From assembly GCA_016711505.1 (NCBI GenBank), contig JADJSV010000002.1, positions 199,674 through 263,673 of the forward strand: DNA of 64,000 nucleotides. Reading direction: 5' to 3'. Positions 4,855 to 30,802 of this stretch are shown here, in pieces; the stretch's first letter is position 1, and each line of letters begins with the position of its first letter. The notes beneath the pieces were generated by a model. That model worked only from the letters and a program-made list of their open reading frames with translations. It was not told the DNA's origin and did not search any database. The translations under genes were made by a program, and so were the position numbers. The stretch is from Bacteroidota bacterium (lineage in GTDB: Bacteria; Bacteroidota; Bacteroidia; AKYH767-A; 2013-40CM-41-45).

Positions 4855-5406
4855 ATGAAGCCAAAAGGCGTTATCGTATTGGCACTATTCTTTACATTGT
4901 CTGTAATCTTTCTCGTTTATATCATGTTAGGTTTAATACCAATGGTTCTTTTCTCATTTGGTTTTCTTGGCGGATTCGTTCTTTGGTTGATTATACCTAC
5001 TAACTTGTCTTTTAAAAATATCAAATCTCCATTTTTTTATTACCCTTTTTTTTCATTCTTCATAAATTAGAAGAATGATATATGGGATTTTTCTCAAAGC
5101 TTTCGGAAATTACTGGTGTTGCTACACCATCAACCGATTCTATTCTAGTCTACTTATTGTATTGCTTCGCCAGATCCTGGTTCTTAATTCCATATTTGAT
5201 GAAGCACAAATATTCTTTTGGGCACTACCTCGTTTGGACCTTTTTTTACCGCAATGGGAGTTAATGAGCTTGCCCATTTTATCTTTCCATTCTTAACGAA
5301 TAATCCATACGGATATTTCCCGGGAATGGCTACAGTTGTTTTACTTGCACCAGTTGCTTGGTGGGGGATGTTTCGACTTTCACGAAAGGATATTGAGAAT
5401 AATTAG
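4855..5406 (+). CDS. Hypothetical small membrane protein, apparently broken over at least 3 frames
   Basis: Hydrophobic ORFs 4855-5070, 5082-5264, 5075-5296 and 5218-5406 are consecutive and in different frames. No family is recognised. Confidence 0.25.
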
Positions 5407-5502
5407 GCAAAATCATTAAGCTAAAAACCATTAAATTAAGGACAGAGTATTCGCCAGCCGAAATGGGACTATTAATTTGAGGAATTTGATCTATTAGTTG
5501 AA

Positions 5503-7449
5503 CTATGAAATCTTCAAAAACCTAGCATTAAAAGCCACAATAATAGTACTTAAACTCATCAAAACTGCACCTGCTGCCGGATTAAGCATTATTCCAAACA
5601 TGCCCGCTGCCAATGGAATAGCAACTACATTATATCCGGTAGCCCATATTAGATTTTGAACCATTTTCCTGTAGGTGGCCTTTCCAAAAAGAATAAGACT
5701 GACAATGTCTTCAGGATTGCTGTTTACTAAAACGATTCCTGCTGTCTCCGCTGCAATATCGCTTCCACTTCCAACTGCAATGCCGACATCTGCTTGCGCT
5801 AAAGCAGGAGCATCATTAACACCATCCCCGGCCATTGCAATGTACTCACCCTTTTGTTGTAGTTCTTTGATCTTGTCAAGTTTTTGATGTGGTAGAACTT
5901 CAGCATAATAACCATCCATATTTAATTGCCGGCTGACACTTTCAGCGACTTTATTATTATCGCCTGTTAAAAGGATCGATTTTATTTTGGCAACATGTAG
6001 TCTTTCAATTGCTCTACCTGATTCCGGACGTATTTCATCGGCAAGAGATATAAATCCACTTACTTTATCATTAACTAATACATACACAACCGTTTCATTT
6101 GGTTGACTGTCTTTAAGTAACATTTCAGGATAATTTTTCTGAATAAATGCCGGACTGGAAACTAAAACTTTAGAGTTGTTTATAATTCCAGTGATACCTT
6201 GCCCTGTAATAGCTTTAAACTCAGAAACAGGAAGTGGGTTCAATTTTCTTACATTTGCCTTTTTAACTATCCCTGTGGCAATTGGATGTTCGGAATTTTG
6301 TTCAAGTGAAAAAGCCATTTGAAGTATTAACTCATCATTGACAGACGAATCAAATGAACCATACCGGATCACATTGAAATTTCCAAAAGTAAGTGTACCC
6401 GTTTTATCGAATATAACTGTGGTAACCTTTCTGGAATTTTCAAATGCTGTTCTGTTTTTGATCAACAAACCATGTTTTGCAGACAAGGAGGTAGATTTTG
6501 CAACTACTAATGGCACAGCTAAGCCTAATGCATGTGGACAGCAAATTACTATTACTGTAACCATTCTTTCCATTGCAAATGCCAATGACTCATTTGCAAT
6601 AGACCACCAATAAAAGAAAGTAGATATACCTGCAGCTAAAGCTACGATAGTTAAAATTCTTGCCGCTTTGTCAGCGAGTAATTGTGTTTTGGATTTTGTC
6701 TTTTGGGCATCATTGACTAACTTAATAACACTTGCAAGATAAGAGTCTTTCGAAGGATGTGTGACAGAAATTTTTAAGGAACCATTTCCATTGATAGAAC
6801 CTGCAATCACTTTTTCCCCCTTTTGCTTTTTCACGGGGACCGATTCACCTGTAAGCATTGATTCGTTAATATAGCTTTCTCCATCTGAAATAATTCCATC
6901 GGCTCCAATCTTTTCTCCGGGTTTGATTAGAATCAGGTCGCCGATATTTAAGGAATCAACTTTAACTTCGTGGGTCATTTCACCTTTAATTAAATGAGCG
7001 CTTGATGGTAATAATTGTACCAGCAGTTCCAATTCTCTTGAGGCCCCGGCAATAGATTTCATTTCTATCCAATGTCCAAGTAACATAATTAGAATAAGTG
7101 TACATAGTTCCCAAAAGAAATCCATCCCTTGTAAACCAAATACAGTAGCAACACTATAAGCATACGCGACAGTGATAGCAATCGCAATCAAGGTCATCAT
7201 TCCAAAAGTTCTTTGCTGGAACTCATCAACAAGACCTTTCAGGAAAGGAAATCCTCCATATACAAAAACCACAGAGGATAAAGAGAAGAGAACATAAATT
7301 GAACCTGAAAAAGAAAAATCAAAACCAAACCATTTTTGGATCATAGGCGAAAGCAACATAACCGGAATAGTAAGGAATAGCGTTACATAAAACCTACGTT
7401 TAAAATCCTCGATCATCATTTTATGATGGTCATGGTGCATCATTCCCAT
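5503..7449 (-). CDS. Heavy-metal-translocating P1B-type ATPase, CopB-like (copper). The His-rich N-terminal leader is encoded in another frame at 7450-7516.
   Basis: Motifs TGES, DKTGTLT and GDGVNDAPAL are present, with CPH in TM6 and MSLST in TM8. The N-terminus reads MGMMHHDHH. Upstream, in an alternate frame, lies MEHQHQGHNNVEHSNH. Confidence 0.9.
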   Translation of the reverse strand: MGMMHHDHHKMMIEDFKRRFYVTLFLTIPVMLLSPMIQKWFGFDFSFSGSIYVLFSLSSVVFVYGGFPFLKGLVDEFQQRTFGMMTLIAIAITVAYAYSVATVFGLQGMDFFWELCTLILIMLLGHWIEMKSIAGASRELELLVQLLPSSAHLIKGEMTHEVKVDSLNIGDLILIKPGEKIGADGIISDGESYINESMLTGESVPVKKQKGEKVIAGSINGNGSLKISVTHPSKDSYLASVIKLVNDAQKTKSKTQLLADKAARILTIVALAAGISTFFYWWSIANESLAFAMERMVTVIVICCPHALGLAVPLVVAKSTSLSAKHGLLIKNRTAFENSRKVTTVIFDKTGTLTFGNFNVIRYGSFDSSVNDELILQMAFSLEQNSEHPIATGIVKKANVRKLNPLPVSEFKAITGQGITGIINNSKVLVSSPAFIQKNYPEMLLKDSQPNETVVYVLVNDKVSGFISLADEIRPESGRAIERLHVAKIKSILLTGDNNKVAESVSRQLNMDGYYAEVLPHQKLDKIKELQQKGEYIAMAGDGVNDAPALAQADVGIAVGSGSDIAAETAGIVLVNSNPEDIVSLILFGKATYRKMVQNLIWATGYNVVAIPLAAGMFGIMLNPAAGAVLMSLSTIIVAFNARFLKIS

Positions 7450-7607
7450 CGGGGATTTGCATGATTCGAATGTTCAACGTTATTATGTCCTTGATGTTGA
7501 TGTTCCATATGATTGTTTTACTTTTTAATTTAAGAGTTAATGTTCTATTCTAATCAGGTATAAATTAGTGCTTAAATTAACCGCTTTAGCTCCGATGATC
7601 AAATTGT

Positions 7608-8096
7608 TTATAGGATTCTTCCATCAATGTTTTTTTTAGTATCCTCTAACATATTTTTCAAACACCAGTTACAATACATATTTGCGAAAAGGAAGGAAAG
7701 AAACTTATAGAACCATTGTTTTGGCGGCAAATAGCTAATAGAAAGTTTCGCGATAGTTGAATTTTCAAGTGGAGATAATTCAAACCACATTCGATACCAT
7801 GACATTATAATAATTTTAGCATCACCAATTGTCTCCCATTCTTTTAATAAAGGCGCTTGCCACTTGGTAATTGTTGTGGTGAAATAAATAATCATTCCTG
7901 CCATCTTTCCATACCAACGATATTTTGCTCCAACTCCACTTGAATTTTTCGATAGTTGTTCTAATTTTAATTTGCTTCCCATCATCATCATAGAACTTTC
8001 GCTCATGTGCATTCCTGTTTTTGAAAAATCATCCATTTGCTGAAAAACAATTTCAGGACTGGAATTAATTATAATACTTTTCGATTTTGTCTTCAT
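7608..8096 (-). CDS. Hypothetical protein, SRPBCC/polyketide-cyclase-like
   Basis: Weak resemblance to SRPBCC ligand-binding fold proteins. Met-rich patch SESSMMMMG. Confidence 0.3.
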   Translation of the reverse strand: MKTKSKSIIINSSPEIVFQQMDDFSKTGMHMSESSMMMMGSKLKLEQLSKNSSGVGAKYRWYGKMAGMIIYFTTTITKWQAPLLKEWETIGDAKIIIMSWYRMWFELSPLENSTIAKLSISYLPPKQWFYKFLSFLFANMYCNWCLKNMLEDTKKNIDGRIL

Positions 8097-8158
8097 ACTT
8101 TAAGATTTTTCTGACTAAAATAGTTTGTTTTATTTGTCAGGAATTTTATTCGACAGAT

Positions 8159-9427
8159 TTATTCTTTCAACTGCGCTTCACTTAAATGCCTGTAAGCATT
8201 TTCTACCATAACAATTCCATCATCTACAATTACACCAATTGCCAAAGCAATTCCCGTAAGTGACATGATGTTGGAAGAAAACCCTAGAAGATTTAAGAGA
8301 ATAAAACTTGATGCAACCGAAACAGGAATTTGAATGAGAATTATAATTGCGCTTCGCCAATGGAAAAGAAAAATTAAAATGACTATAGTAACACTAATAA
8401 ACACTTCAACCAGTGTTCCCTTTACTGAACTAATAGCTTCTTCAATTAATCCACTTCTGTCATAATTAATTTTAAATTTCACGCCTTCAGGTAAACCTTT
8501 TTGTAATTCAGCCATTTTTGCCTTTACGTTTTTTATAACCTCATCAGCGTTTTCTCCGTATCGCATTACTACAATTCCACCGACTTTTTCGCCTTCTCCG
8601 TTTTCGTCAAAAATTCCGTATCGGATATCGCCACCCATTTGCACCGACCCAACATCTTTAATTCTTATGGGAACATTATTGGAAGTGCTAAGTGAAATAT
8701 TTTCAATTTCACCGATTGATTTAATGTAACCCAAACCTCGCACGATATATGACTTATCGCTCATTTCAAATTTTCGTCCTCCAACATCATTGTTATTTGA
8801 TTTTACCGCTTGCAAAACGTCCATCATTGAGAGATTAAAGAAGTTCAGTTTCACAGGGTCAATAATTACCTGATACTGTTTTTGAAAACCTCCGAAGGAG
8901 GCAACTTCACTTACTCCGGGAACTGTTTGTAAAGAAAACTTGATATACCAATCCTGCAAAGCACGTTGTTCGCCAAGATCATATCCTTTGGCATCTAACG
9001 AATACCAAAAGATATGGCCAACGCCTGTTCCATCGGGGCCGAGTGTGGGTGAAATTCCTTCAGGTAAAAGTTTCTGTGCAAAATTTAACCGCTCTGCTAC
9101 CCTCGTTCTAGCCCAATAAATGTCAACATTGTCCTCAAAAACTAGATATACGAAACTCATTCCGAACATAGATGAACCTCGGATATTTTTAAGTTTCGCA
9201 ATGCCTTGCAAATTTGAAACGAGTGGATATGTAATCTGGTCCTCGATTACCTGCGGGCTTCTCCCCATCCATTCAGAAAAAACAATTACCTGATTTTCGG
9301 ATAAGTCAGGTATTGCATCTACGGGGTTGTGCTGCACTTCGTAAAGTCCCCACCCTAACATGCCTGCTGCAAAAAGTAATACAACAAAGCGATTGCGCAA
9401 TGAGATTGATATAAGACGTTCAACCAT
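8159..9427 (-). CDS. czcA: CzcA/CusA-family heavy-metal RND efflux pump, N-terminal fragment only (residues 1 to about 420). It ends in the TM4-TM5 loop.
   Basis: The N-terminus 'NRFVVLLFAAGMLGWG...NPVDAIPDLSENQVIVFSEW' and the end '...AIGVIVDDGIVMVENAYRHLSE' align to CusA residues ~1-415. A stop follows, and then the next gene starts. Confidence 0.85.
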   Translation of the reverse strand: MVERLISISLRNRFVVLLFAAGMLGWGLYEVQHNPVDAIPDLSENQVIVFSEWMGRSPQVIEDQITYPLVSNLQGIAKLKNIRGSSMFGMSFVYLVFEDNVDIYWARTRVAERLNFAQKLLPEGISPTLGPDGTGVGHIFWYSLDAKGYDLGEQRALQDWYIKFSLQTVPGVSEVASFGGFQKQYQVIIDPVKLNFFNLSMMDVLQAVKSNNNDVGGRKFEMSDKSYIVRGLGYIKSIGEIENISLSTSNNVPIRIKDVGSVQMGGDIRYGIFDENGEGEKVGGIVVMRYGENADEVIKNVKAKMAELQKGLPEGVKFKINYDRSGLIEEAISSVKGTLVEVFISVTIVILIFLFHWRSAIIILIQIPVSVASSFILLNLLGFSSNIMSLTGIALAIGVIVDDGIVMVENAYRHLSEAQLKE

Positions 9428-9438
9428 TGTTGTTTGAA

Positions 9439-9708
9439 TTAGTGTTTTTTCATTTCAGATAATTCCATTCCACACTTTGGGCAATCTCCCGGTTTATCGG
9501 ATAGTACTTCTAGGTCCATCACACATTGGTAGAATGCTTCTCCATTTTTCAACATCGTTGTGTCAATATTGAAGTTTTGTGATGTGTTTTGACCTTGATT
9601 TGTTGTGGAATCGGGCAAAGTTCCTTTTTCACTTCTGTTTGATGAACTATTGCAGGCGCCTAGTAATATTATACTATTTAATGCTAGTAAAAGAATTGCA
9701 TTTTTCAT
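9439..9708 (-). CDS. Small lipoprotein with a C-terminal heavy-metal-binding domain (HMBD, CxxxDxxV...CPKCGM)
   Basis: Lipobox LLGAC. The C-terminus 'YQCVMDLEVLSDKPGDCPKCGMEL' matches the HMBD found at the N-termini of CusB-like adaptors. Confidence 0.65.
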   Translation of the reverse strand: MKNAILLLALNSIILLGACNSSSNRSEKGTLPDSTTNQGQNTSQNFNIDTTMLKNGEAFYQCVMDLEVLSDKPGDCPKCGMELSEMKKH

Positions 9709-9730
9709 TTATACTATTTACTTAGAGAGT

Positions 9731-10887
9731 TTACATTTTCATTCCCGGCATTTCTTGATGGCCTTCCATAGGGTTCGCTCCTTTTTTAAAAATATATTCG
9801 CTGTTCAATAAGTATGCACCTTTCACAACAACAACATCTCCTTCTTTCAATCCATCAATTATTTCAATTTGGCTACTGTTCTGCATACCTACTGTTACCA
9901 TTTTATTTTCAAACACTCCATCATTGTTTCTCACCCACACATTTGCTCCTTTACTATCCTGAACAATTGCATCTAAAGGCAGCACATAAGATTTTTTCTT
10001 TTCTGTTTGTAAGTTTATATTAGCTAACATTCCGGGCTTTATTTGTCTTGATGAATTAGTTAACTGAAATCTTGCCAAAACATACCGTTGTGGCGCTTGC
10101 ACTTGTGGATCAATAAAAACTACTTTCCCCGAAAACAATTCTTGAGTTGCAGCAGGAATAGAAAAACTAGCTTCCGTTCCAATTTTTATATAAGTTAAAT
10201 AGGGGAGATAGACTTGGGCTTCTACCCATAGTGCATTTATTGAAGCGAGTCGGAAAGAGTAGCGCCTGCTGAGACGTAATTCCCTTCATTAACAGATATT
10301 TCGCTCACAAAGCCCTCCGTTTTCGCAAACACCGGAATATTTTGCAGAATTTGCTTGGAGGTATTAAGTTGATCGATTTGCAATTCGCTCATTCCAAATA
10401 ACAGCAACTTATTTTTAGTGCTTTCGATAAAATCACCAGTTGAAAATGACTTTTGTAGAGCTAGCAAATATTCTTCTTGCGCCAAGTTTAAATCTTCACT
10501 GTAGATTTCATAAAGCATCTGACCTCTGCTAATGTATTCTCCAATGTTTCTTACGGCTAACTTTTCAATTCTTCCTTGGACTCTTGCACTGATAGCATCT
10601 GAAAGATTTTGGTCCACTGTAACTTTTCCTGTAAGGGTAATTTCTTTAGCCAACTCATGAACACGAACTGTGTCATATGTAATGTTACCTAATTGGATTT
10701 GTTGGGAACTTAGTTTTATTTGTCCCGTTTTGAGATTATTCCTTTTTACCTTAATCAGTTTCATGTGGCAAATTGGACAGTTGCCAGCTTTATTTTCTAT
10801 CACTTGCGGATCCATTGAGCATGTGAAATACTCATCTGATCCCGCCATCTCGGCCTGATTATTATTTTTTTTGCATGAAATTAGCAA
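9731..10887 (-). CDS. RND efflux membrane-fusion protein (CusB/CzcB-like) with an N-terminal HMBD. It is split into two frames (10237-10887 and 9731-10138).
   Basis: N-terminal 'YFTCSMDPQVIENKAGNCPICHMKL' (HMBD), followed by HlyD-family adaptor sequence and a C-terminal beta-barrel domain ORF in another frame. Confidence 0.7.
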
Positions 10888-10937
10888 CAGAATGGATGCT
10901 AAAAAAAAGCATCATGACTTGGTTTGCGATATTTATT

Positions 10938-12189
10938 TTATTTCTGTACATTATTTTCGGTTTGAATAAAGCTTTCGCTGTCTACCATAAATTGTGCATT
11001 GGCAGCAACCATTTCATTTTCTTTTAATCCGGATTTTATTTGAACCAATGAATCTGTGAAAGCTCCCGTTTGTATTAATTTAGTAACAAAACAGTTTTCT
11101 GATTTTACAAATACGATTTGATTATATCCTAAGTTTACAATTGCATTTCGTGGCAACCATATTCCCTTAATTTCTGATGAAGTAATATTAGCAGAAACCA
11201 GAGTACCTATTTTAAGTTGTCGGTCTTGGGAATTCTTCAAATACACTCTTGCTTTAATTGCAGAATAATTTTGACCGGCAACAGGTTCAATGTAACTGAT
11301 GGTGGATTGAATAACAGTAGTTGGATTTGCTTCAGTAGTGAGAGACTTTATCACCTATATTGATTAGTGCAGCATCTTGTGGAAATATATCCAACACTGC
11401 CCAAACCTGACTTATATTGTAAACCGAAAAAAATGCCTGACCACTTTGCAAATACATTCCTTCCTTAATTGAAAGTGCGGAGGTTCTTGAGGAGGAAAGA
11501 TTCTCAACTTGCATTTGTGTGGGCGATTCACTAGTTGTATTCATTCCTGAACTCATTCCATTCCCCTTGGAAGGTGCAGCAGAAGTAACTCCACTGCTAA
11601 TTCCTAAATCATGAATGTGCCCAGTATAAGGGCTGTATATTGGTAATGGATTTATCGGTTGTTTCGTGGTTTCAATTTGTTTAAGTTGTTCATTGTTTAA
11701 TCCTAGCAATTGTAATTTAGTTTTAGATGAATTGATGAGCGGAAAGTCCTTAATAGAACTGTTCAAAAGATAAATTAGATTTTGTTGTTCAGTCAAAATT
11801 TCCGGACTGTAGATATCCATGATTCGCTGACCTTTAAAAACATTTTCAAAATTGAAGCGCACATACAATTTTTCAATTCGCCCACTGAACCGTGCGCTGA
11901 TATTGTTGAGTGAGCGAGGATCGTAAACAATTACGCCTATTGCATTTAATCGGGGCGTGATCGTTTGTTGCATAGGTAGAATTGTTTTTACGTCACTAAA
12001 TACTGTTTGATTAGTTGGTTGTTCTAAGCCTTCCAACTCACTGGTCTTGTTTGCCTGAATGTGTTTGTGTTCGTCTCGGCTACTACAAGACGAGATGAAA
12101 ATCAGAATTGCAATCCCGATAAACACCGAGAAAGCAACGATCCCATTGCCTCTTGCCATGCCCTTATCGAATTTCCAATTCTTTTTCAT
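10938..12189 (-). CDS. RND efflux membrane-fusion protein (HlyD/CzcB family). There is a frameshift at the overlap 11332-11354.
   Basis: ORFs 11332-12189 and 10938-11354 overlap by 23 nt in different frames. The lipoprotein N-terminus and the adaptor coiled-coil/beta-barrel regions are both present. Confidence 0.7.
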
Positions 12190-13390
12190 ATTCTACTTGT
12201 AATTTAAAAAGTACATTCAATTGGTCTAATTCATTCATTTTTGCCATTCGATGCATCTTCAACGCATCAAGTACGACAAAAAGATCCTCTGTATTTTGCT
12301 CATAGGCAAGCATTGAGGTTTCATAACTCTTGAAATAGGTTGGAATTATCAGATTGGTATAATTAGTTAGTTGCTGCTTTGAATATTTCATTTGTGTCTG
12401 CAATGAGGCTATTTTCCCTGCTGTTTCATTGACAAGAGATTGTTTTTGATAACCTATAGCATTGAGGGTGTTGTTCAACCCTTTAATATTTGATTTGTAT
12501 TCTTTGGTTGCCCACGGCGCAATTGGAATTGTCATCATTCCCATTGCTGAATACTGATTAGGCATCATACCCAGTGATTGCATGTGACTTAGTGAAATTC
12601 CAAAGTCAGGCAAGCGTTTCGATTTTTCGTATTGCTGTTGGAATTTAAGTAAGCCAATATTTGCATCAAATTGTTTGATATCGCTGCGTGATGTTGTAAT
12701 AAGGAAAGTATCAATTAACTGCAATTCATAATCGTATGATATGAATGAGGTATCAACATCAAACTCATATGACTTGTCAATATTCATGAGAGTGTTAAGT
12801 TCAATATTTTTCATTTTCATATCGCCAACCAACATTGCTTCCATATTGCGTAATTCAAATAAGTCTGCCTGAGATTTGTAAATGTTATTGAGTTTTTCTT
12901 TGTTAAAGGTGAAACGATTTTGTGCAACCTGAACGATATAATTTAAAAGGGAATCGGTTTGCATCAATACATAGTATTTCTTTTGCAGCACTATCCATTC
13001 GTAATAATTCGTTTTAGCCATTGCGAACATTTCATTCTTCTTTGCAGCTTTTCCTTGTTGTTCAATTGAAGCCATGCCCTGCATAAATTGATAATTCGCC
13101 TTTTGTTTTGCAGGATTCGGAATCATTTGTTCTCCTGTTATCATCCACATCCCATCGCTAAAGTTTTTGTAGGGAGCTTGCCACGGACCTGTAGAAAAAG
13201 TGGGAGGCATCCAACTTTTTGCCATCTCCGAATAATTATTCGCAGCATTGATTTGCTCATCATACATTTTGAGCATTGGGTTATTACTTTCTATCCTACT
13301 CAAAACTGAGTCAATTGTCAACACTTGTCCGAATGTTTGAATTGCACAAACACAAAAAATAAATAGCAATATTCTTTTATTATTCTTCAT
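12164..13390 (-). CDS. TolC-family outer-membrane efflux protein (CzcC/CusC-like)
   Basis: Signal peptide, ~408 aa, with the typical OEP repeat composition. It overlaps the upstream czcA 3' end by 11 nt. Confidence 0.8.
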   Translation of the reverse strand: MKNNKRILLFIFCVCAIQTFGQVLTIDSVLSRIESNNPMLKMYDEQINAANNYSEMAKSWMPPTFSTGPWQAPYKNFSDGMWMITGEQMIPNPAKQKANYQFMQGMASIEQQGKAAKKNEMFAMAKTNYYEWIVLQKKYYVLMQTDSLLNYIVQVAQNRFTFNKEKLNNIYKSQADLFELRNMEAMLVGDMKMKNIELNTLMNIDKSYEFDVDTSFISYDYELQLIDTFLITTSRSDIKQFDANIGLLKFQQQYEKSKRLPDFGISLSHMQSLGMMPNQYSAMGMMTIPIAPWATKEYKSNIKGLNNTLNAIGYQKQSLVNETAGKIASLQTQMKYSKQQLTNYTNLIIPTYFKSYETSMLAYEQNTEDLFVVLDALKMHRMAKMNELDQLNVLFKLQVEYEKELEIR

Positions 13391-15326
13391 TTATTCCCGG
13401 CAGGATTATTTTTCCATGTTTTTTTAATTCTCTTTCCTTTCCCATTTCATAAATTATAGGTGTTACCAATAAGACATAAATAGTAGAAGTAATTACACCG
13501 CCAATCAAGGGAATTGTAATTGGCAACATCACATCGCTGCCCGTACCAGTTGACCAGAGTATAGGAATTAAGCCAAAGAGCGAAACGGAAACAGTCATTA
13601 ATTTTGGCCGCAACCGTTGAACGGCACCGTCCATTATGTATTTACGTAAATCAGCCTTTGAAATAGTTTCATTTGAATTACCTTTATCTTTAACCAACTT
13701 TTCCATATACTCATTAAGGTATATAACCATCAACATTGCTGTTTCAATTGCTACACCAAACAATGCGATAAAACCAACGGCAACGGCAACTGATAAATTC
13801 ACTCCATAGAAATAAACCATATACACTCCGCCTATTAATGCAAACGGAACAGTAATAATAGTCAGTAAAGCTTCTTTCAATGATTTGTAAGTAAAATACA
13901 ATACCATAAAAATGATAATAAGAACAATTGGCATTATAAATTTTAATGTTTTGTTCGCACGAATTTGATTTTCATATTGACCGCTCCATTCAAGGTTGTA
14001 ACCTTTCGGAAGTTTGGAAAACATTTTGTCCAATTTGTCTTGTGCTTCTTTCACTGTGCTTCCCAAGTCACGATCCCGTACATTGAACAATACTGTTCCC
14101 CGCAACATAGCGTTTTCTGAGTTAATCATTGGTGGACCTTCCGAAACAGTTACTTCAGCTACTGATGAAAGCGGAACGGTTCCATAATTCATAGTTTTTA
14201 TTGGAATTTGGTTTATGGCTTCTAAACTGTTTCTGTAGTCCTGTGCGAACCGTGCATTCACCGTAAATCGTTCTCTGCCTTCAATTGTTGTAGTTAGATT
14301 CATTCCCCCTAATGCAGTTTCAACATACATATTCACATCATCCACACTCAAACCATATTTCCCAATTTCGTTTTTTTTCACTGTAATATCCACATATCTC
14401 CCTCCTGTAACGGGTTCAACATATAAATCTTTAATGCCATTGATCCCTTGCAATTCATTTTTCATTTTTACCGCAAGAGTATAGATGGAATCTAGATTCT
14501 GTCCATAAATTTTCAATCCTACATCTGTTCTTATTCCTGTTGAAAGCATGTTGATTCGGTTGATAATAGGTTGAGTGAAACCGTTAACTACACCTGGAAT
14601 TTGCAACTTTGCATTCAATTCGTTAATTATCTCGTTCTTGGTTATACCGATTCTCCATTGTGCCTTTGGTTTCAATAGAATAATTGTTTCAATCATACTG
14701 ATTGGAGAATTATCGGTCGCTGTGTTTGCTCTGCCAGCTTTGCCTAATACATTTCCTACTTCAGGAACTGACATAATTAATTTATCCTGTACCTGTAAAA
14801 TTCTTTTAACCTCAGAATTTGATACATCTGGTAGTGTTACAGGCATGAACAGTATAGAGCCTTCATCCAATGGAGGCATAAACTCTGAGCCCATTCGAAA
14901 CAACATAATACCACCAACGGTGAGCGCTATTATATTTAGTGCTATTACTGTTTTTCGCCAATGCAAGCACCATTTCAAAATAGGAGAGTAAATCTTCTCC
15001 AAGACCCGCGTTACAGGGTTTGCACTTTCAGGTTTTAATTTCCCTTTTAGAATAAATGAAATCAAAACAGGTGCAAGCGTAATAGCAAGAAATGCATCAA
15101 TAATAAGTATGAAAGATTTTGTCCAAGCTAGTGGATGAAACATTTTTCCTTCAATACCGGTAAGTAAAAAAACGGGGAGAAAAGAGGTAATTACAACGAT
15201 GGTTGAATAAAACACACCAGGCCCTACCTGTTTCGAGGACTTTTCAATAATTTGTAATCGTTCTTTACTTTCCACCTTTGCAATTATTTTTAAAAAAATA
15301 GCGAAACTATTTATTAATAACAGCAC
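13380..15326 (-). CDS. czcA: CzcA/CusA-family RND pump, C-terminal fragment (about residue 415 to the end). The 5' ~50 nt of the ORF is AT-rich non-czcA read-through from a GTG.
   Basis: 'KERLQIIEKSSKQVGPGVFYSTIVVITSFLPVFLLTGIEGKMFHPLAWTKS' aligns to CusA TM5 onward, and the match continues to the conserved C-terminus '...MLPITIPLIGGVITSTIYVLLVTP'. Confidence 0.85.
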   Translation of the reverse strand: MLLLINSFAIFLKIIAKVESKERLQIIEKSSKQVGPGVFYSTIVVITSFLPVFLLTGIEGKMFHPLAWTKSFILIIDAFLAITLAPVLISFILKGKLKPESANPVTRVLEKIYSPILKWCLHWRKTVIALNIIALTVGGIMLFRMGSEFMPPLDEGSILFMPVTLPDVSNSEVKRILQVQDKLIMSVPEVGNVLGKAGRANTATDNSPISMIETIILLKPKAQWRIGITKNEIINELNAKLQIPGVVNGFTQPIINRINMLSTGIRTDVGLKIYGQNLDSIYTLAVKMKNELQGINGIKDLYVEPVTGGRYVDITVKKNEIGKYGLSVDDVNMYVETALGGMNLTTTIEGRERFTVNARFAQDYRNSLEAINQIPIKTMNYGTVPLSSVAEVTVSEGPPMINSENAMLRGTVLFNVRDRDLGSTVKEAQDKLDKMFSKLPKGYNLEWSGQYENQIRANKTLKFIMPIVLIIIFMVLYFTYKSLKEALLTIITVPFALIGGVYMVYFYGVNLSVAVAVGFIALFGVAIETAMLMVIYLNEYMEKLVKDKGNSNETISKADLRKYIMDGAVQRLRPKLMTVSVSLFGLIPILWSTGTGSDVMLPITIPLIGGVITSTIYVLLVTPIIYEMGKERELKKHGKIILPGINEE

Positions 15327-15383
15327 AAGTTACAATAAACAATTTTTTAAAATATGACTTCTGTCCTGTAATACAGCATATAA

Positions 15384-15602
15384 CTATTGCTTTACAACAC
15401 TTTCCAAGGCCATGTCACACTTAGGACAATTATCTGCTTTCGCTGAAATTACTTCCAAGTGCATTGGACACTGAAAAAATGTTTTTCCCGAATCAACTTT
15501 TGACGTGTCGAGAGTAAATGTGCTTGTTGTTGATCCATCTTTTGGTGATGAACACGCTACCATTAAAACTGCAATAGCGGAAATTACAAATGCTTTTTTC
15601 AT
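15384..15602 (-). CDS. Small lipoprotein with a C-terminal heavy-metal-binding domain (HMBD), paralog of 9439-9708
   Basis: Lipobox MVACS. C-terminus 'FFQCPMHLEVISAKADNCPKCDMAL'. Confidence 0.65.
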   Translation of the reverse strand: MKKAFVISAIAVLMVACSSPKDGSTTSTFTLDTSKVDSGKTFFQCPMHLEVISAKADNCPKCDMALESVVKQ

Positions 15603-15713
15603 ATTTTATTTATTTATTAACCTTGTTTTATTGTTCACTCTCGCTTCTAATAAATTACATTTTGAATCCATCTTGAATGCTTACATGCCATCTTTTATCA
15701 AGCATTTTTATAT

Positions 15714-17147
15714 TTATTGTCTGATAAATTTGCTTAACAATTCTCCCTTTTCTGTTTCAATTTTTAAAACATACATTCCATTTTCAGGAGAAATTTTCAA
15801 ATTTACTTCTCCATTGATTACCTGACATTTGCTGTTAATAGTACATTGCCCTAAAACATTTTCAATTTTAAAATTGTACTCTCCATCTGGAACCGCACTA
15901 AGTAGCATTTTAATTTCTTCAGAACCCGCGGGATTAGGATACAATAAAATTCTACCCGTTTCAACCACAGAAATATTTGTCGTCGGAATATAAATACCAC
16001 TTTTGAATTTTACAGTTCCTGAAATATCGTCTTGCCAAACGACATAGACATTTCCATCATGAATTGCAACGTCTGCGTTCACAACTCCTGCATTAGCAAT
16101 TGTGTCAGTTACCGGATTCAAGCCGTTATTTATATCAGATGAAAACCGTAATAGTGCTTTATTTTCACCTGAAACTGTTTCCTTCCACACTATTCCGACG
16201 GCAGACTCATAGTTTGAGATTCGTGGGTAGTTCTGATCATTATTACCTGATAATTGTTGAACAGATGTAAGCGACATATTACTGATAGACGAACTGCTGA
16301 AATAAACTTTTGGAGAACCACTTGCACCATTCATGAAAACCGAATACAGAGAATCTTCAACGATAACTCCATCTGGTCCCGTAGACGGACAAGCCATAAT
16401 CATCCAATTATTTAAATCAACATTCCAGCCGTTTGTAAACGATATAGCATTATCCATTGAGATACTTGTCCAGCTATCTCTAATATTGTTTAGGTTGTCA
16501 CGATAAAGCATAGCAACAGTATTTCCTTCGCTTACAATTGAACTCGGACAGCAATCACATACGACGCCACCTGACCAGCCACTTGCTAAAACATCTGTTA
16601 TAAAAGTATTTCCATAATCCGAAGATCTTGTTACCATCCATCTTGCATTTGAAAAGTTAGGATCCAATTTCATAAACCCAACTATTGGATTTCCTGAATC
16701 GTCTATTGTAACTGTTGGAAACCGACTAAGGTCAGGAGTAACGAAATCCACTTGAATTGGTGATGAAAATGACTGTCCACCATCAAAAGAACTGACAATG
16801 TAAATCGGGTTAACATCTTCGGGTGTTTCTTTGATCACAATGTAAACTGTATCTCCTCGTGAAGCAATGTCTGGCCCGGCCCAAGATGCAGTAAATACAG
16901 GGATTGAAGGTGGGTTGATCGTTATAGGGCTTGTAAACATTGTTCCGTTCCACTTGGAGAATTTACATTCATTTGACGATCCTTTTCCCCAAATAATCAT
17001 AGGATTTCCTGAAGCATCAGTAACAACTCTAGGATGAAGGTTCCCATCCATTGACATTGCAACGGTGACTTCAGATGACCATGTCACTTGCTGGGCATCT
17101 GCTCTTAGGATAAATAATATTGAGAGAAGTAGGATAAGATATTTCAT
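15714..17147 (-). CDS. Secreted BNR/sialidase-fold-like beta-propeller protein with a T9SS C-terminal sorting domain
   Basis: Signal peptide. The C-terminus 'LYPNPAGSEEIKMLL...GEYNFKIENVLGQ...MYVLKIETEKG' is a T9SS CTD. The body is Ser/Asp/Gly-rich, consistent with a propeller. Confidence 0.55.
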   Translation of the reverse strand: MKYLILLLSILFILRADAQQVTWSSEVTVAMSMDGNLHPRVVTDASGNPMIIWGKGSSNECKFSKWNGTMFTSPITINPPSIPVFTASWAGPDIASRGDTVYIVIKETPEDVNPIYIVSSFDGGQSFSSPIQVDFVTPDLSRFPTVTIDDSGNPIVGFMKLDPNFSNARWMVTRSSDYGNTFITDVLASGWSGGVVCDCCPSSIVSEGNTVAMLYRDNLNNIRDSWTSISMDNAISFTNGWNVDLNNWMIMACPSTGPDGVIVEDSLYSVFMNGASGSPKVYFSSSSISNMSLTSVQQLSGNNDQNYPRISNYESAVGIVWKETVSGENKALLRFSSDINNGLNPVTDTIANAGVVNADVAIHDGNVYVVWQDDISGTVKFKSGIYIPTTNISVVETGRILLYPNPAGSEEIKMLLSAVPDGEYNFKIENVLGQCTINSKCQVINGEVNLKISPENGMYVLKIETEKGELLSKFIRQ

Positions 17148-17155
17148 TTGTTAGA

Positions 17156-18883
17156 TTATAGTTTAATTATTTTACAATACTGAGATTTATGGTTGTCAGT
17201 AACTCTTAAAATATATATACCTGATTGAATACTGTGCAAGTCAATAATAAATTCTGATGAATTGTAATTCAATTTTTTTGAGAGAGCACAGTCTGGTTTG
17301 AGCTATTAAATACAGAGTATTCTATTTCTTTTTCAAAACCTTTCAGTGAAATCCTTACAGATCCGGAAACGGGATTAGGACTGCATTCTAACACTTCAAT
17401 ATTCTTACTTGGATTATTTATATCTGATGTTCCTGGTAAAACAACAAACGATCCCATCATACCATCATCTTCATGGTGTAGTAAATGACAATGATACATG
17501 TAAGGTATGGTGTCTGCAAAATCTTCAAACTTGGTTATAAAGGATACTGATTCATTAGGCATGACTAAAACAACATCCTTCTTCACTTGTTCTGAAACAG
17601 GAACAGAAATACCATTGACATCGGTGACATAAAATTGTACATCATGAATATGAAATGGATGGGCGATCAGTGTATTATTTATTAAAGTCCATTTTTCAAC
17701 ATGATTTAAATAGGTAGTATCGTTTATCGTATCCATACTAAATTGATGTCCATTGATTGTAAATGGACCTTCAACCATTTCCATCGGCCCCATAGTTTGT
17801 GGCGCAAAAACGATATCTCTTGTTCTGTTTATCAGACTAGCATCAATTGGTTGGAAATTAACTAATGAAGTTGGAATAGAGGTAACGGATTAAGTGTTGG
17901 GGCAACAACATTTATTTCAAGAAGATCATAATCCGCACCATTTAAGAAATTCAGGTTGTAGTCGGGAATTTGACTCATTCCATTTCCAACATTTTGAGCA
18001 CCTAGAATTCCATCAGGTAATCCACTGCCGTAATTCATCATTGAAATAGTTTGCCCCTGCATTCCGGTAAGATCAATTAGAATTTCAGCTCTTTCTCCGG
18101 GTGATAATTGTAATCGGTTTTTTGCAATAGGGGATCTAACTAAACCACCATCCGTTGCGATTTGATAGAAAGTCATATTGTTTGAGAAACCAAATAAGAA
18201 TGAACGATCAGATGCACCATCGAGTAATCTAAAACGCACAACTTGCGCAGGTGCATTAAAAAAAGCATCGATGGTCGCATTGATCATTGGCACAGTATCA
18301 AACACAGTAGCAATTGCTGTCTGATATAGTACATCAAAACATTTGGTCTGAACTATAAGTGGAACATCATCTATTCCATAAGTTCTCGTAAATTCAATGC
18401 TGATTCAGCACTGTCTTTCACTATTATTAATCCTGCAAGTCCTTTTGAAACTTGAATATCAGTACGATTTTGACCATGTGGATGATACCAATATGTTGCA
18501 GCATCATTCATTACGGTAAATGAAGGCGACCAGGTTGCTCCCGGCATGATCATTTGGTGTGGACCACCATCCGCATGTGCAGGAACATGTAAACCATGCC
18601 AGTGCATAGTTGTAACCGGTGGAATATTGTTTGTTACATTCAGTGTTACATTGTCACCTTTATTTAAAATCAACGTTGGGCCAAGAATGTTTCCATTAAC
18701 ACCATAAGTCGGGGTTTGATGGCCTGCAAAAAATTCCGTTGAATCCGCTTGAACCGTTAAATTGAAATTTGTACCCGACAAAGTGGGTGGAATAAATAAA
18801 GGATTTTGTGAATACGATTTATTAGCAATGACGAAAAGGATCGTCACTGCTAATAAATTGAATATTGATTGTTTGTTTTTCAT
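17156..18883 (-). CDS. Multicopper oxidase (three-domain laccase/CueO-like) with a T9SS C-terminal sorting domain. It is split over about 4 frames.
   Basis: Domain 1 carries HWHG and WYHPH. Domain 3 carries HPFHIHD and HCHLLHHEDDGMMG (T1/T2/T3 copper ligands). The tail '...EFIIDLHSIQSGIYILRVTDNHKSQYCKII' reads in another frame after an A7 run. Confidence 0.8.
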
Positions 18884-19662
18884 TAGTGAGCAATATTTAT
18901 TCTTTTGTTAATTGATTTGCCATTACTAAGGATTTGTACTGTATAAACACCGGATGGGATGCTAGACAGGTTCGAACTTACTTTATGGATTCCGCTGTTG
19001 GCTTCTTCATTTGCAATCTCGCGAATTAATTTTCCTGAAACATCTAACAGATTGATCGTAACATTAGTCTTTGATTTCATATTCAATTCAATTGAGAATA
19101 GATCATTCACAGGATTTGGATACAATGAAACATTTTCAATTGTTGCAGGTAAATCATTTACTTTTGACGTTGCAAAGAAGTTTCTTGCCGCAATACCAAT
19201 TGCAGTTGTATCACTTATGGAAAATCCCACATTTGTAAAAAGCACATCATGTCCTGACCCTGCAGCAACTGCTACAGTTGGCATTCCGAAGCCTCCATAA
19301 TAAGCAACCAATGCCGCACCCTGATCGAATATTGCACTATTGAATCCATTTGTGTTTTTGAATCCGGACATAGTAGCGCAAGTGTAGCTATTCGTGTAAG
19401 CGATCTGATACCACTTTACTCTGCCCGGATATTCTGCCTGAAGATCCATGACCATTGCCTCAATAGCATGCCCAGCAGCTATACAAGAATTGCAAGTCAT
19501 GACAAATTCCATGATCACAACCTGACCTGAATCAAGTTCAGAGAATAAATGATGTGATTGACCATCGCAATCAACTTTTGTAAAATCCATCGCAGTCGTT
19601 TGAGCTTTGGAAATCACCGAAACGAACATCAAAGCAATCATTAGATAAAATGATTTTTTCAT
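18883..19662 (-). CDS. Thioredoxin-fold (CxxC) protein with a T9SS C-terminal sorting domain
   Basis: 'GQVVIMEFVMTCNSCIAAGH' is a TlpA/redoxin-like CxxC context. C-terminus 'LYPNPVNDLFSIEL...LLDVSGKLI...GVYTVQILSNGKSINKRI'. Confidence 0.5.
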   Translation of the reverse strand: MKKSFYLMIALMFVSVISKAQTTAMDFTKVDCDGQSHHLFSELDSGQVVIMEFVMTCNSCIAAGHAIEAMVMDLQAEYPGRVKWYQIAYTNSYTCATMSGFKNTNGFNSAIFDQGAALVAYYGGFGMPTVAVAAGSGHDVLFTNVGFSISDTTAIGIAARNFFATSKVNDLPATIENVSLYPNPVNDLFSIELNMKSKTNVTINLLDVSGKLIREIANEEANSGIHKVSSNLSSIPSGVYTVQILSNGKSINKRINIAH

Positions 19663-26465: not shown

Positions 26466-27665
26466 TTATTTGTTAAGTAAGTAATTTAAATTTATCACAG
26501 ACTGATTCATTTGATTGACAGCATTGAGATAGGCAAGTTGTATGTCAATTGCTGTTTGAAGAGCATTGAGATACTCGATATAACCAATTTCGCCGGACTT
26601 TAGACCAACGCTAGCTGTATTGGTAACAACATCTGAATTGTTTAATCCTGTTGATCTATAATAGCTATAGACAGAACGACTCTGCTCATACTTATTCAAT
26701 GCATTCTGAAAATGGACTACAATATCCGTTTTCATTTTTTCTTTCTTTTACTAATGATTGCTGCCTGAATTTATAAGACTTGATCCGTGAACTGCTGCTA
26801 AAGAAAGTCAGAGGTATATTAACACCAAAATTAAATCCTGTAAATCGTTTATCAGATTCATAGTAAACTTCGCTACCATTTACATTCTGAAAACCAATTA
26901 TACTTTGATTGTTATATCCAATACTAAATTCAGGAAGAACATTTGCAGATTCTACTTGCTTTGTTTTCTCCGCAATCAAAGCCTCTTGAAATATCAGTTT
27001 TAATTGAGGATTTTCATTGAGAAGGAAGTGTCCGTTAATTCTGTAAGATTAAAAATCAATGTGTCTGCTTCCGGGATCAACACAAATTCATCTTTTAGAT
27101 TTAAAAGTGATTTTAATGAAAGATAGACTTCTGAATATTCTCTTTCGTATTGTGTCTTTAAGATAGTTAATTGTCCCCGTTTTGATTCTGCTGTTGCTTT
27201 CTCTAGCAAATTACTTTCACCGCTTTTATAACGTACTTCAGAAGCACTTACAAAATTGGAATAAAGGCTATCAAGAGAATTGAGTTTAACATTTACGTTT
27301 CGTAAATACTGCATTTGATAAAATAACGATCTTATTCGCGTTCTGACTTCATTGATTTTTGCATTCCCTTTTAGCTCTGCACCTTCAAATTCTGCTTTAT
27401 ATAAACCAGCCTTTGCTGAATAGACCGTAGGAAAAGGAATATTTTGCTGAATTGACAATCCGTTATCCTTATTGATGCTATTATATTGACCGTATTGATA
27501 TTGAATCTCTGTTTTAGGAAGTTCAAATACAGATTTTTTTAATGCTGCTGAGGATTTTATATTAAGTTGTTCAGATTGGATTTCTAAATTGTCTTTTAGT
27601 GCTTTATTTATTGCATCAGGCAAACTCAGATTTTGCTGAGCATTTACTTTAAATGACTTAAGCAA
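26466..27665 (-). CDS. TolC-family outer-membrane efflux protein, fragmented into 3 ORFs
   Basis: ORFs 27000-27665, 26692-26979 and 26466-26735 together give OEP-like N-terminal, middle and C-terminal segments. Confidence 0.7.
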
Positions 27666-30600
27666 AATATAGCAATAATCATCGTCGAACCGATCTTTAC
27701 TTTACGTCCTGAATAGAAAACCAGATATAGCAAAGGAAGAATAAACAGAGTTAAGAAGGTCGCTGAAAGCAAACCACCTATTACTACGGTTGCCAGTGGT
27801 CGCTGAACTTCTGCACCCGCTCCATGAGAAAGAGCCATTGGAAGAAATCCTAATGAAGCTACAGTTGCTGTCATAAGAACCGGACGCAAGCGCATCTTTG
27901 TACCAGTTTTAATTCTTTCAATAATATCTGACATTCCCTCTTTTTCAAGTTGATTAAACGTTCCTATCAAAACGATTCCATTTAGTACAGCTACACCAAA
28001 TAATGCAATAAAACCAACCCCCGCTGAAATACTGAAAGGCATATCTCTAATTAGTAGCGCAAACACACCTCCAATAGCAGACATTGGTATTGCAGAATAA
28101 ATAAGAGTTGCCTGTTTAACAGAATTGAAAGTGAAATATAGCATCAAAAATATTAATGCAAGAGCCACAGGTAAAGCAATCAGTAATCGTTTACTTGCAG
28201 CTTGAAGGTTTTCAAATGTTCCGCCATAAGTATAATAATATCCTTCCGGTAATATTACCTTCTGATCTAGTTCTTTCTGAATATCTGTAACAACGCTTTC
28301 AACATCTCTCCCAGAAACATTGAAGCCGACAACAATCCTCCGCTTACCGTCTTCTCGACTGATCTGTGCAGCACCTAATTCCATTTTTATTTCCGCTACT
28401 TGTGAAAGAGGAATTTGAGTTCCAGTCGCAGTCGGAATATATAAATGACTTACATCTTCAATGTTACTTCGATTTGCGCTATCAAGTCTCACAACCAAAT
28501 CAAACTTCCTCTCATTCTCATATACAACGCCCGCAGATTGTCCGGCAAATGCTGTACTAACAATGTGATTAATATCTTCAATATTTAATCCATAGTTTGC
28601 AATCTGTGAACGGTTATAGTTAATGACAATTTGCGGAAGACCTTCAACTCTTTCAACACTTGGTTCTGTAGCTCCTTCAATGTTCTTCACAACTGAATTT
28701 ACTTTATTCGCATAACTTACTAGAGTATCCATATTCTCACCAAAGATTTTTACAGCAACATCTTGTCTAATTCCTGTCATAAGTTCATTAAACCTCATTT
28801 GGATTGGTTGGTTCTTTTTCAAAGAAAACTCCGGGAATGACACTTACTTTTTTCAAATTCTTCAGCAAGTTCATCGTATGTAATTTCTCTTTTCCATTCA
28901 TCAGGACTTTTTAAAATGATCATTAAATCTGTTGCCTCAGGTGGCATTGGATCGGTTGGCACTTCACCTGCTCCCGTTTTACCGACAACCATTTTTACCT
29001 CATCAAATTCTTTTATTAAGCGGGACGCTTGCATTGAAGTTTCAAGACTTTGAGAAAGCGAAGTTCCCTGAGGAAGAATACAGTGAAAAGCAAAATCGCC
29101 TTCTTGCAATGTTGGAATAAATTCTCCACCCATTCTTGAAAATATGAACACTGCAAGAATAAAGAAGCCAATTGTAATGGCTACAAGCGTTTTTTTAATT
29201 CCGATTGCCTTTGCAAGCAGAGGAGCATATTTACTTTGCAAATAGGACATCATCTTGTCGCTGAAAGTTTTCTTATGACTTAAGTGCTTAGGTAAGAACA
29301 AAGCGCTCATCATTGGGATATAAGTCAATGAAAGAATCATAGCTCCTAAGATTGCGAAGGCTACTGTTTGTGCCATTGGTCTGAACATTTTTCCTTCAAT
29401 TCCAATTAGACTAAGAATAGGAAGGTAAACGATCATGATAATAATTTGTCCAAATATTGCGCTGTTCATCATTCGTTTAGCACTACCTCCAACAGCCAAA
29501 TCCATTTCATTTTGAGAAAGTCGATTTTTCTCTCTTCGTTGCTCTATATTAAACAAAGATGCTTCAACAATTATTACCGCACCATCTACAATTAATCCGA
29601 AATCAATTGCTCCAAGGCTCATTAGATTCGCACTGACACCGAAAACATTCATTAGTCCAAGAGCAAAAAGCATTGAGAGTGGTATAGCAGACGCTACAAT
29701 TAAGCCTGCCCGAAGATTGCCTAAAAACAAGACTAGCACTAAAATTACAATTAGTGCTCCTTCAATCAGATTCCTTTCAACCGTACTCATAGATCTTTTG
29801 ACAAGATCAGTTCTATCAAGAAATGGTTCAACGATTATATCATCAGGCAAGGATTTTTGAATTGTAGTCATTTTACTTTTAACCCTATCCACAACCTCTG
29901 CGCTATTAGCCCCCTTTAGCATCATAACAATACCCCCAACAGCATCAACTTCTCCGTTGTAAGTCATAGCGCCGTACCTTACAGCACTGCCTAAACGCAA
30001 CTCAGCTATGTCCTTTATTAAAATAGGAATTCCGTTCGGATTTGTTTTAACTACAATGTTTTTGATGTCCTCAAAAGTTCTAATTAAACCAACTCCTCTT
30101 ATAAAATATGCATTTGGTTTTTTATCAATATATGCTCCTCCGGTATTCTCATTGTTTTTTCAAGAGCAGTAAAGACCTCCGGTATTGTTATTCCCATTGC
30201 AATAAGTCGATCAGGATTGAGTGACACTTCATATTGCTTCAATTGTCCTCCAAAACTATTCACCTCTGCAATTCCCGGTGTTCCGTAAAGTTGTCGGGCA
30301 ACAATCCAGTCCTGCATAGTGCGAAGGTCCATTGAAGTGTATTTGCTTTCACTCCCTTTCTTTGGGTGAATGATATACTGATAAACCTCTCCTAAACCTG
30401 TGCTGACAGGGGCAAGTTCCGGTTTGCCAATTCCGGCGGGTATATCTTCTTCCGCTTCTTTTAGTTTTTCATTTATCAGTTGACGGGCAAAATAAATGTC
30501 AACCTTGTCATCAAACACAACAGTAACTACAGAAAGCCCAAAGCGCGAAATGCTTCGCAACTCCACAAGGTCTGGAAGATTAGCTATGCTTTGTTCAATG

Positions 30601-30802
30601 GGATAGGTTACTAATTGTTCAACTTCCTGTCCGGCAAGTGTAGGACAAACAGTGATGATTTGAACTTGATTATTTGTGATGTCAGGTACTGCATCAATTG
30701 AAAGTTGGGTTGCACTCCATACGCCCCAGATTATTAGTGCAAAAGTCATCAAACCAATGATGAACTTGTTTTTATGCTAAACGCAATTATTTTATCGAGC
30801 AT
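27644..30802 (-). CDS. czcA: CzcA/CusA-family heavy-metal RND efflux pump, second copy. It is full length but lies in at least 4 frames.
   Basis: ORFs 30099-30752, 28819-30000 and 27644-28843 cover the N-terminal, middle and C-terminal parts. The true N-terminus MLDKIIAFSIK (30802) is recovered upstream in another frame at an A-run. Confidence 0.85.

Follow-up and report, generated by a model that had tools for sequence, protein, structure and literature searches.

A CusA-type RND efflux locus of Bacteroidota with its permease encoded in two complementary parts and a permuted operon order

Closest described systems

CusCFBA of Escherichia coli, whose permease CusA is represented by the Protein Data Bank (PDB) entries 3K07, 3NE5 and 4DNT, is the described system with which the locus considered here is most directly compared. 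This locus lies in a stretch of 64,000 nucleotides from a Bacteroidota bacterium (GenBank assembly GCA_016711505.1, contig JADJSV010000002.1, positions 199,674 to 263,673), called the window below, and encodes a permease of the resistance-nodulation-division (RND) superfamily in two genes, for an N part and a C part. Both systems share about 50% identity, the domain order, the methionine triad and the D405/E939/K984 proton relay, as well as an operon with adaptor and outer-membrane protein (OMP) genes, accompanied here by further copper genes, for a multicopper oxidase and a copper P-type ATPase. They differ in that the permease of the window consists of two polypeptides cut between transmembrane helices (TM) 4 and 5, with the C gene first and the N gene last in the clade of the window; in addition, two different adaptors (membrane fusion proteins, MFPs) are found instead of one CusB, small proteins with a heavy-metal-binding domain (HMBD) replace CusF, and the host is one of the Bacteroidota. 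By sequence, the permease belongs to the CusA/CzcA family of heavy-metal efflux RND permeases (HME-RND; TIGR00914), and the system would work in the manner of CusCBA, but the single 12-TM polypeptide of about 1,050 aa that scores above the family cut-off is not present here.

A 12-TM unit of the RND superfamily made from two polypeptides is already known from SecD/SecF, which occurs in nature in fused and split forms (PMC8277102) and is the only two-chain RND unit mentioned in that 2021 Chemical Reviews article. SecD/SecF is divided 6 + 6 TM at the boundary of the internal repeat, each half being a complete repeat with its own periplasmic domain. The locus of the window is not of this type, as its division is asymmetric, 4 + 8 TM, falls inside the first repeat and affects the permease of a tripartite efflux pump.

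Similarly, the permease of MdtBC is formed by the products of two adjacent RND genes; however, MdtB and MdtC are full-length 12-TM paralogs that form a heterotrimer, whereas the two genes here encode complementary parts of one protomer. TriABC-OpmH of Pseudomonas aeruginosa is an RND pump with two adaptors, and its TriC is a single-chain permease of the HAE1 family. The window likewise has two different MFP genes in one RND operon, with 20-29% identity between MFP1 and MFP2 as seen by tblastn cross-hits. The N- and C-terminal fragments of LacY were reportedly co-expressed in Kaback's laboratory, and transporters cut in a cytoplasmic loop are said to be able to reassemble. Those fragments are laboratory constructs, in contrast to the natural arrangement described here, which is conserved across several classes of the phylum.

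As for the permease itself, no description of a split, half-size or fission RND, CusA or CzcA permease was found in the full-text literature searched, which lacks most subscription journals, and the locus belongs to a variant of the CusA-type pump that is widespread and apparently undescribed. That it is a clear architectural variant, not a new kind of system, is well supported. It can be read with good confidence as a CusA-type Cu(I)/Ag(I) RND efflux system with a two-polypeptide permease, of about 422 aa (N) and 631 aa (C), in which the fission came first and the swap of gene order later. A broader proposal, to which slightly better than even credence is given, is that of a Bacteroidota-wide family of tripartite Cu/Ag RND pumps whose permease would be a natural heterodimer (4 + 8 TM, cut inside the first repeat), with adjacent, permuted and re-fused layouts, and the first natural split of the RND permease of a tripartite pump.

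Two complementary parts of one permease

The genes between 5503 and 15602 are all on the minus strand and are treated in order of descending coordinates. The operon begins with the gene for the C part, at 13380-15275 (TM5-TM12 with PC1, PC2 and DC; 631 aa from a conserved GTG), while the gene at 8159-9427 encodes the N part (422 aa; TM1, PN1, PN2, DN and TM2-TM4), both as assigned by CusA and TIGR00914 alignments. Each covers its own portion of every reference used. The Pfam ACR_tran profile is matched at 2-419 by the N part and at 413-1017 by the C part, while TIGR00914, the best NCBIfam match for both, is covered at 1-427 and 433-1042 of its 1051 positions. The respective scores of 470.8 and 611.8 bits are each below the cut-off of 701.45 and sum to 1082.6. 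Against CusA of E. coli, residues 1-419 of the N part correspond to 1-422 (E 3e-127) and residues 2-611 of the C part to 431-1037 (E 2.6e-169), with ZneA as the next best hit; the CusA chains in the PDB carry a 7-residue tag, and this offset was removed from the residue numbers.

The two parts are thus exactly complementary: they do not overlap, and all that is missing is a counterpart of CusA 423-430, about eight loop residues (HQHPDATL in E. coli). By the CusA alignment, the cut falls in the cytoplasmic TM4-TM5 connection, so that the abutment of the two pieces in this loop with few residues missing, as reported in the earlier note, is confirmed by both alignments. The TM assignment relies on the CusA alignment because a crude Kyte-Doolittle scan under-called the helices. 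At the break, the N part ends three residues past the conserved ...ENAYRHLSEAQ, and the C part has its conserved start at the GTG at 15275, as called in near-identical contigs, which aligns with the ATG of other members of the permuted clade (M-D/N-K-K-E-R-L-K...). The length of 648 aa first given for the C part is correct for the maximal open reading frame (ORF; 13380-15326), which is that long because a 3-bp deletion removed an upstream TGA, and it does not apply to the conserved product of 631 aa.

Regarding the catalytic residues, they are divided between the two chains. The proton-relay aspartate (CusA D405, TM4) is conserved as D402 of the N part, while the relay glutamate (E939, TM10; ...GVAIETAM...) and lysine (K984, TM11; ...RLRPKLMTV...) are conserved in the C part, together with the Cu(I)/Ag(I) methionine triad M573/M623/M672 (...ILFMPVT..., ...SPISMIET... 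and ...NRINMLST...). MFP and OMP genes share the operon with both permease parts, as expected for a tripartite RND system.

Recurrence of the split and of the permuted order

The 120 database proteins most similar to the N part, from NCBI, JGI, ENA and Logan, have 87-100% identity to it, and every one of them is a stand-alone protein of 413-440 aa. Among cluster representatives at 50% identity, the sole close relative (69%) has 427 aa, and the next ones, at 54% identity or less, are a mix of full-length proteins of about 1,100 aa and shorter, possibly cut-down ones. The order C-OMP-MFP1-MFP2-(sometimes DUF2231)-HMBD-N-ATPase is seen in contigs that were obtained from different samples with different assemblers and whose N part is identical or 91% identical; their C genes encode 631-632 aa, MFP1 is intact at 416-417 aa, and MFP2 has 372-406 aa where it is fully called. 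The window itself is colinear over 12.5 kb, at 96% identity, with a contig of an independent assembly, as seen by comparison with JGI, ENA and Logan contigs. The order on the minus strand given earlier (C part, OMP, two MFPs, HMBD, 422-aa N part) stands, as borne out by ORFs and Pfam; the two MFPs do lie between the permease parts, but both are frameshifted in the window.

A scan with the N part of species-representative genomes gave 80 loci, which were followed by tblastn and ORF tracing. The permuted order (type C) was found in 18 complete loci and 7 cut by a contig end, none of the 25 contradicting it, with N identities to the window of 79-100% and the labels Saprospiraceae, Chitinophagales or Bacteroidia. 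The split point is conserved in about 90 loci.

Most of the other loci are split without being permuted. This adjacent form (type B), with the order (HMBD)-N-C-OMP-MFP-MFP, was found in 57 complete genome loci, which have 73-77% identity and encode N parts of 424-432 aa and C parts of 639-645 aa. Each C gene starts at an ATG of its own, which in most cases falls -8 to +11 nt from the stop of N and often overlaps it as ATGA; relative to N, the frame of C is +2 (37 loci), +1 (12) or 0 (6). Since all three relative frames occur at a constant break point, these are two genuine cistrons, sequencing error and recoding being excluded. The unpermuted HMBD-czcA-OMP-MFP-MFP order that the earlier note suggested looking for in related genomes thus exists, with czcA as adjacent N and C genes.

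The adjacent form is present in cultured isolates, as in Flavobacterium limnosediminis, F. gawalongense, F. granuli and other Flavobacterium species, as well as in Lacibacter sp. MH-610 (complete chromosome) and Cytophaga aurantiaca DSM 3654. On finished plasmids, at 61-73% identity, it occurs in Runella slithyformis DSM 19594 (a conjugative plasmid), Haliscomenobacter hydrossis DSM 1100, Hymenobacter, Adhaeribacter and Mucilaginibacter. RefSeq labels both halves "efflux RND transporter permease subunit". In the RefSeq plasmids (L092-L097), the split permease genes have locus tags that do not follow the series of their neighbours (for example, HUW48_RS27130/27135 between RS00205 and RS00220, and HALHY_RS38435/38440), which suggests a re-annotation from an earlier single or pseudogene call. 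The listing of Hymenobacter radiodurans holds just part of the C gene.

Two adjacent loci depart from the common pattern. In L072, a 586-nt insert (5291-5877) lies between N and C, with an apparent small signal-peptide-like ORF (MKKIFLNLMMSIIFVSISVV...). The complete chromosome of a Chitinophagaceae metagenome-assembled genome (MAG), L030, has two N-C pairs 3 kb apart (10001-13252 and 16116-19335), with 75/73% and 72/68% identity to the window, and mixed pairing of N and C is a possibility there.

Finally, a fused form (type A), a single ORF of about 1,050 aa, was found in three Saprospiraceae MAGs (L051, L074 and L081, about 10001-13156), where the junction reads ...RHLSEAPWAKTFSERLAIIEK....

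Selection and predicted assembly

The identities of N and C to each relative are alike (91/89, 90/87, 84/84, 75/76 and 76/76%), so both parts belong to one co-evolving paralog; an origin of the fragments from different czcA paralogs, which the earlier note had named as a point to be checked, was looked for, and this equality speaks for the same paralog. The ratio of nonsynonymous to synonymous substitution (dN/dS) between the window and its nearest relatives is 0.005-0.037. Within the permuted clade, the synonymous sites are saturated (proportion of differences, pS, 0.67-0.87) and the nonsynonymous proportion (pN) is 0.05-0.11, the pN of 0.29 for the C part of L017 being an alignment artefact that was ignored. 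N and C are in one operon wherever the extent of the contig allows it to be seen. A pseudogene or an artefact does not agree with a recurrent break, strong purifying selection and retained key residues; thus, the two pieces are not a non-functional remnant, as both are under purifying selection and every catalytic residue checked is kept.

As for the mode of assembly, both new termini would be cytoplasmic, so that each part could insert into the membrane independently. N and C would then associate non-covalently into a 12-TM protomer, whose proton relay would come from both chains, with the D405 equivalent on N and the E939 and K984 equivalents on C. Such protomers would trimerise and work with two different adaptors and the OMP. 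The relay spread over two chains, the strict co-occurrence of the genes and the re-fused forms are the arguments, all drawn from sequence comparison, by which the parts are predicted to form one protomer.

Order of events

Neighbour-joining trees of the concatenated N and C proteins were rooted with full-length homologs of about 48% identity. Every bootstrap (50/50 and 60/60) recovered the permuted clade as monophyletic, and this clade is nested in the adjacent form after divergent plasmid sequences are added (monophyly of fused plus adjacent loci, 0/60). The fused loci are also monophyletic and nested in the adjacent form, whose own monophyly was recovered in 3/50 and 0/60 bootstraps. Because of this nesting, the fused form is best read as a secondary re-fusion of two genes.

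The parsimonious history, as far as the trees go, would have one fission at the base of the group, one block swap at the base of the permuted clade and one re-fusion. In the first step, the ancestral czcA/cusA gene would have been divided in the cytoplasmic TM4-TM5 loop, resulting in the adjacent, translationally coupled HMBD-N-C-OMP-MFP1-MFP2 order that is still widespread in Bacteroidota. In the second, within one lineage, the blocks [HMBD-N] and [C-OMP-MFP1-MFP2] would have been swapped into C-OMP-MFP1-MFP2-HMBD-N, an order then inherited and to which the window belongs. The swap could have occurred through tandem duplication of the operon and reciprocal loss of the outer copies, or through translocation.

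This history keeps part of the earlier view, where one gene was cut once and reordered. There was indeed one CusA/CzcA gene, with a single cut and swapped parts; however, the fission and the reordering are separate and old events, and the gene was not cut when the order changed, as the parts were already separate cistrons and whole genes were moved. The pieces abut at one residue precisely because N and C were already separate genes at that time. Likewise, a circular or tandem intermediate within an intact czcA does not apply, although tandem duplication is a plausible route for the swap. The possibility that the HMBD gene upstream of C (15384-15602) is left over from a duplicated operon was rejected, as this gene is confined to the closest relatives of the window; it does not discriminate between the routes.

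Frameshifts and alternative explanations

Some points weigh against the split-pump interpretation and the history given for it. All permuted loci come from MAGs or metagenome contigs, no cultured representative having been found among them. The outgroups of the neighbour-joining trees are distant (about 48% identity), and long branches could affect the rooting. Tandem duplication and translocation, the likely routes, would each yield the swap and are not told apart. The assembly of the subunits and the transport of metal are read from purifying selection and residue conservation. Furthermore, both MFPs, the start of the ATPase and the multicopper oxidase carry frameshifts in the window and, if these are real, the system would be inactive in this strain.

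The indels were scored against the 96%-identical contig. MFP1, a CusB/CzcB-like adaptor (10938-12189, minus strand), is present as two ORFs of 285 and 138 aa, a TC repeat at about 11346 having lost 2 bp. MFP2, an adaptor with an N-terminal HMBD (9731-10917, minus strand), has ORFs of 216 and 135 aa, with a 1-bp insertion in a run of T (7-8 bases) at about 10908 and a 1-bp deletion (T4 to T3) at about 10257. A 1-bp deletion in a run of C (C5 to C4) at about 7455 shortens the ATPase ORF from 668 to 648 aa, and the multicopper oxidase (17269-18883, minus strand) has indels at about 17886 and 17280, being broken into ORFs of 170, 147 and 174 aa; in the near-identical contig L005, it is a protein of 575 aa with a sorting tail of the type IX secretion system (T9SS). 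The near-identical contigs have MFP1 intact at 417 aa and MFP2 intact at 394-406 aa.

The second metal cluster of the window (27000-30752, minus strand; czcA-OMP-MFP) is not better preserved. The earlier note had described it as intact at 27644-30802; its czcA (27644-30752, minus strand) is colinear but divided into three ORFs, matching ACR_tran at 14-210, 263-641 and 647-1020, and its OMP ORF has only 221 aa. These breaks are away from the conserved TM4-TM5 site and look like frameshifts or assembly errors, not like a designed split.

The alternative that survives best takes these defects as real, with an architecture that is ancestral and functional elsewhere and an operon that is decaying in this strain. 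This is unlikely, although it deserves attention, since comparison with the 96%-identical contig shows six frame-disrupting indel sites over about 11 kb of coding DNA and the second metal cluster is fragmented as well. However, the MFP and ATPase indels all fall in short homopolymer or dinucleotide runs, (TC)n, T and C, a pattern typical of consensus errors and indicating them here; N, C, OMP and both HMBD genes, in turn, are untouched by frame-disrupting indels and under purifying selection relative to the closest relatives. The MFP frameshifts are thus most likely assembly indels.

Quite improbably, the halves may have ceased to act as a single pump in spite of the conserved split, as when only the C subunit is active or N has a separate role. 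The joint pump is itself a prediction, and in the permuted clade N and C are about 4 kb apart and lack translational coupling. On the other hand, N and C always share an operon where the contig allows and evolve at the same rate, the essential TM4 aspartate is on N while its partners, glutamate and lysine, are on C, and three MAGs have re-fused the halves into one ORF, all of which favours a single pump made of both parts.

Less probable still is a single recent rearrangement, by which a circular or tandem intermediate re-integrated in czcA broke the gene and left two dead fragments. The pieces do abut at one point in swapped order, next to cluster genes that are frameshifted in the window; nevertheless, 25 permuted and more than 60 adjacent-split loci, some with as little as 61% identity, are split at this same point with matching stop and start positions, the divergence of the related loci (79-91%) excludes copies of one contaminating sequence, and both ORFs are free of indels relative to near-identical contigs, with a purifying dN/dS and intact catalytic residues.

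A repeat-induced misassembly of a contiguous czcA, also considered in the earlier note, can be given almost no credence. The many indel-type defects do point to an imperfect assembly, but a repeat search in 7000-16500 found nothing above 36 nt, hence no repeat to drive misassembly or recent recombination; moreover, the 12.5-kb colinearity at 96% identity holds with JGI, ENA and Logan contigs of different samples and assemblers, and the layout is kept in diverged genomes, with 25 such loci sharing it.

Equally negligible is the joining of the halves by split-intein trans-splicing, of which cyanobacterial DnaE is an example, or, for the adjacent form, by ribosomal recoding: non-adjacent genes for two parts of one protein are a hallmark of split inteins, but beyond the conserved CusA residues on either side of the break N has just 0-11 further residues and C just 2-17, leaving no room for intein halves of about 100 and 35 aa and no extra domains at the break, while recoding does not agree with three relative frames and an own ATG in each C gene.

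Implications

The RND permease of a tripartite pump is regarded as one chain with 12 TM, and a conserved 4 + 8 split runs counter to this. The TM1-4/PN and TM5-12/PC modules would be produced as separate polypeptides and yet be under selection as a single pump, in which case the relay would span two chains. The adjacent, permuted and re-fused layouts form a natural series for the study of membrane-protein assembly, translational coupling and operon order and, if the reading of a split pump is true, the family would be a ready-made system for the folding and assembly of an RND protomer from parts.

There are also consequences for annotation, as half-size Bacteroidota genes labelled as RND permease subunits should not be called pseudogenes; each half scores below the TIGR00914 cut-off. 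Surveys of metal resistance that count czcA/cusA by full-length hits will mis-score split loci.

Other genes of the locus

The gene following C encodes the TolC-like outer-membrane factor (12164-13390, minus strand; 408 aa; Pfam OEP, 1.2e-12), whose start overlaps the C stop by 11 nt and whose position is constant across all related loci. It is followed by the two adaptors, both of the HlyD_D23/CusB type and lying between the C and N genes, and by an 89-aa HMBD protein (9439-9708, minus strand; PF19335, 1.3e-8) with a lipoprotein-like signal (…LLGAC), directly upstream of the N gene; this HMBD-N pair is also seen in some split-adjacent relatives. From the C gene through the N gene, consecutive genes either overlap or leave gaps of no more than 26 nt, and a scan of this interval gave no convincing terminator-like site between genes, its hits falling inside coding sequences and one at the MFP2 start, so that C through N looks like one operon. 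A scan for sigma-70 promoters, which does not cover those of Bacteroidota, gave 38 sites against 41 expected.

A second HMBD protein, of 72 aa (15384-15602, minus strand; Pfam), is encoded upstream of the C gene, only in the window and its closest relatives (L005, L006 and L009), the other permuted loci lacking it. The two HMBD proteins, preceding C and N respectively, are about 35% identical, and their genes have no similarity to each other at the DNA level, as seen by the repeat search in 7000-16500. They may be periplasmic metal chaperones in the role of CusF. In some permuted loci (L001-L004, 8635-9690), a DUF2231 membrane protein of 351 aa is encoded between MFP2 and HMBD-N; the window lacks it, and the gap between MFP2 and HMBD is only 22 nt (9708-9731).

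Past the N gene, a conserved protein of 162 aa (7608-8096, minus strand) precedes the ATPase gene. It has no match in Pfam or NCBIfam, and its homologs, with 43-67% identity, are found beside copper operons in several genomes (L021, L023, L030, L065 and L088). The copper P-type ATPase (5503-7508, minus strand; TIGR01511, 9e-173; 668 aa in relatives) has a CPH motif and a His-rich N-terminus. Together, the T9SS-sorted multicopper oxidase, the CPH-type ATPase and the HMBD proteins provide a copper context that fits copper/silver detoxification.

The copper genes may be an island at the edge of a mobile element. The homology of the window to near-identical contigs stops just past the ATPase stop (about 5484), where those contigs continue with a 398-aa protein and a tyrosine integrase (Arm-DNA-bind_5/Phage_integrase; L005, 14184-16902). 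Related split operons sit on plasmids, one of them conjugative.

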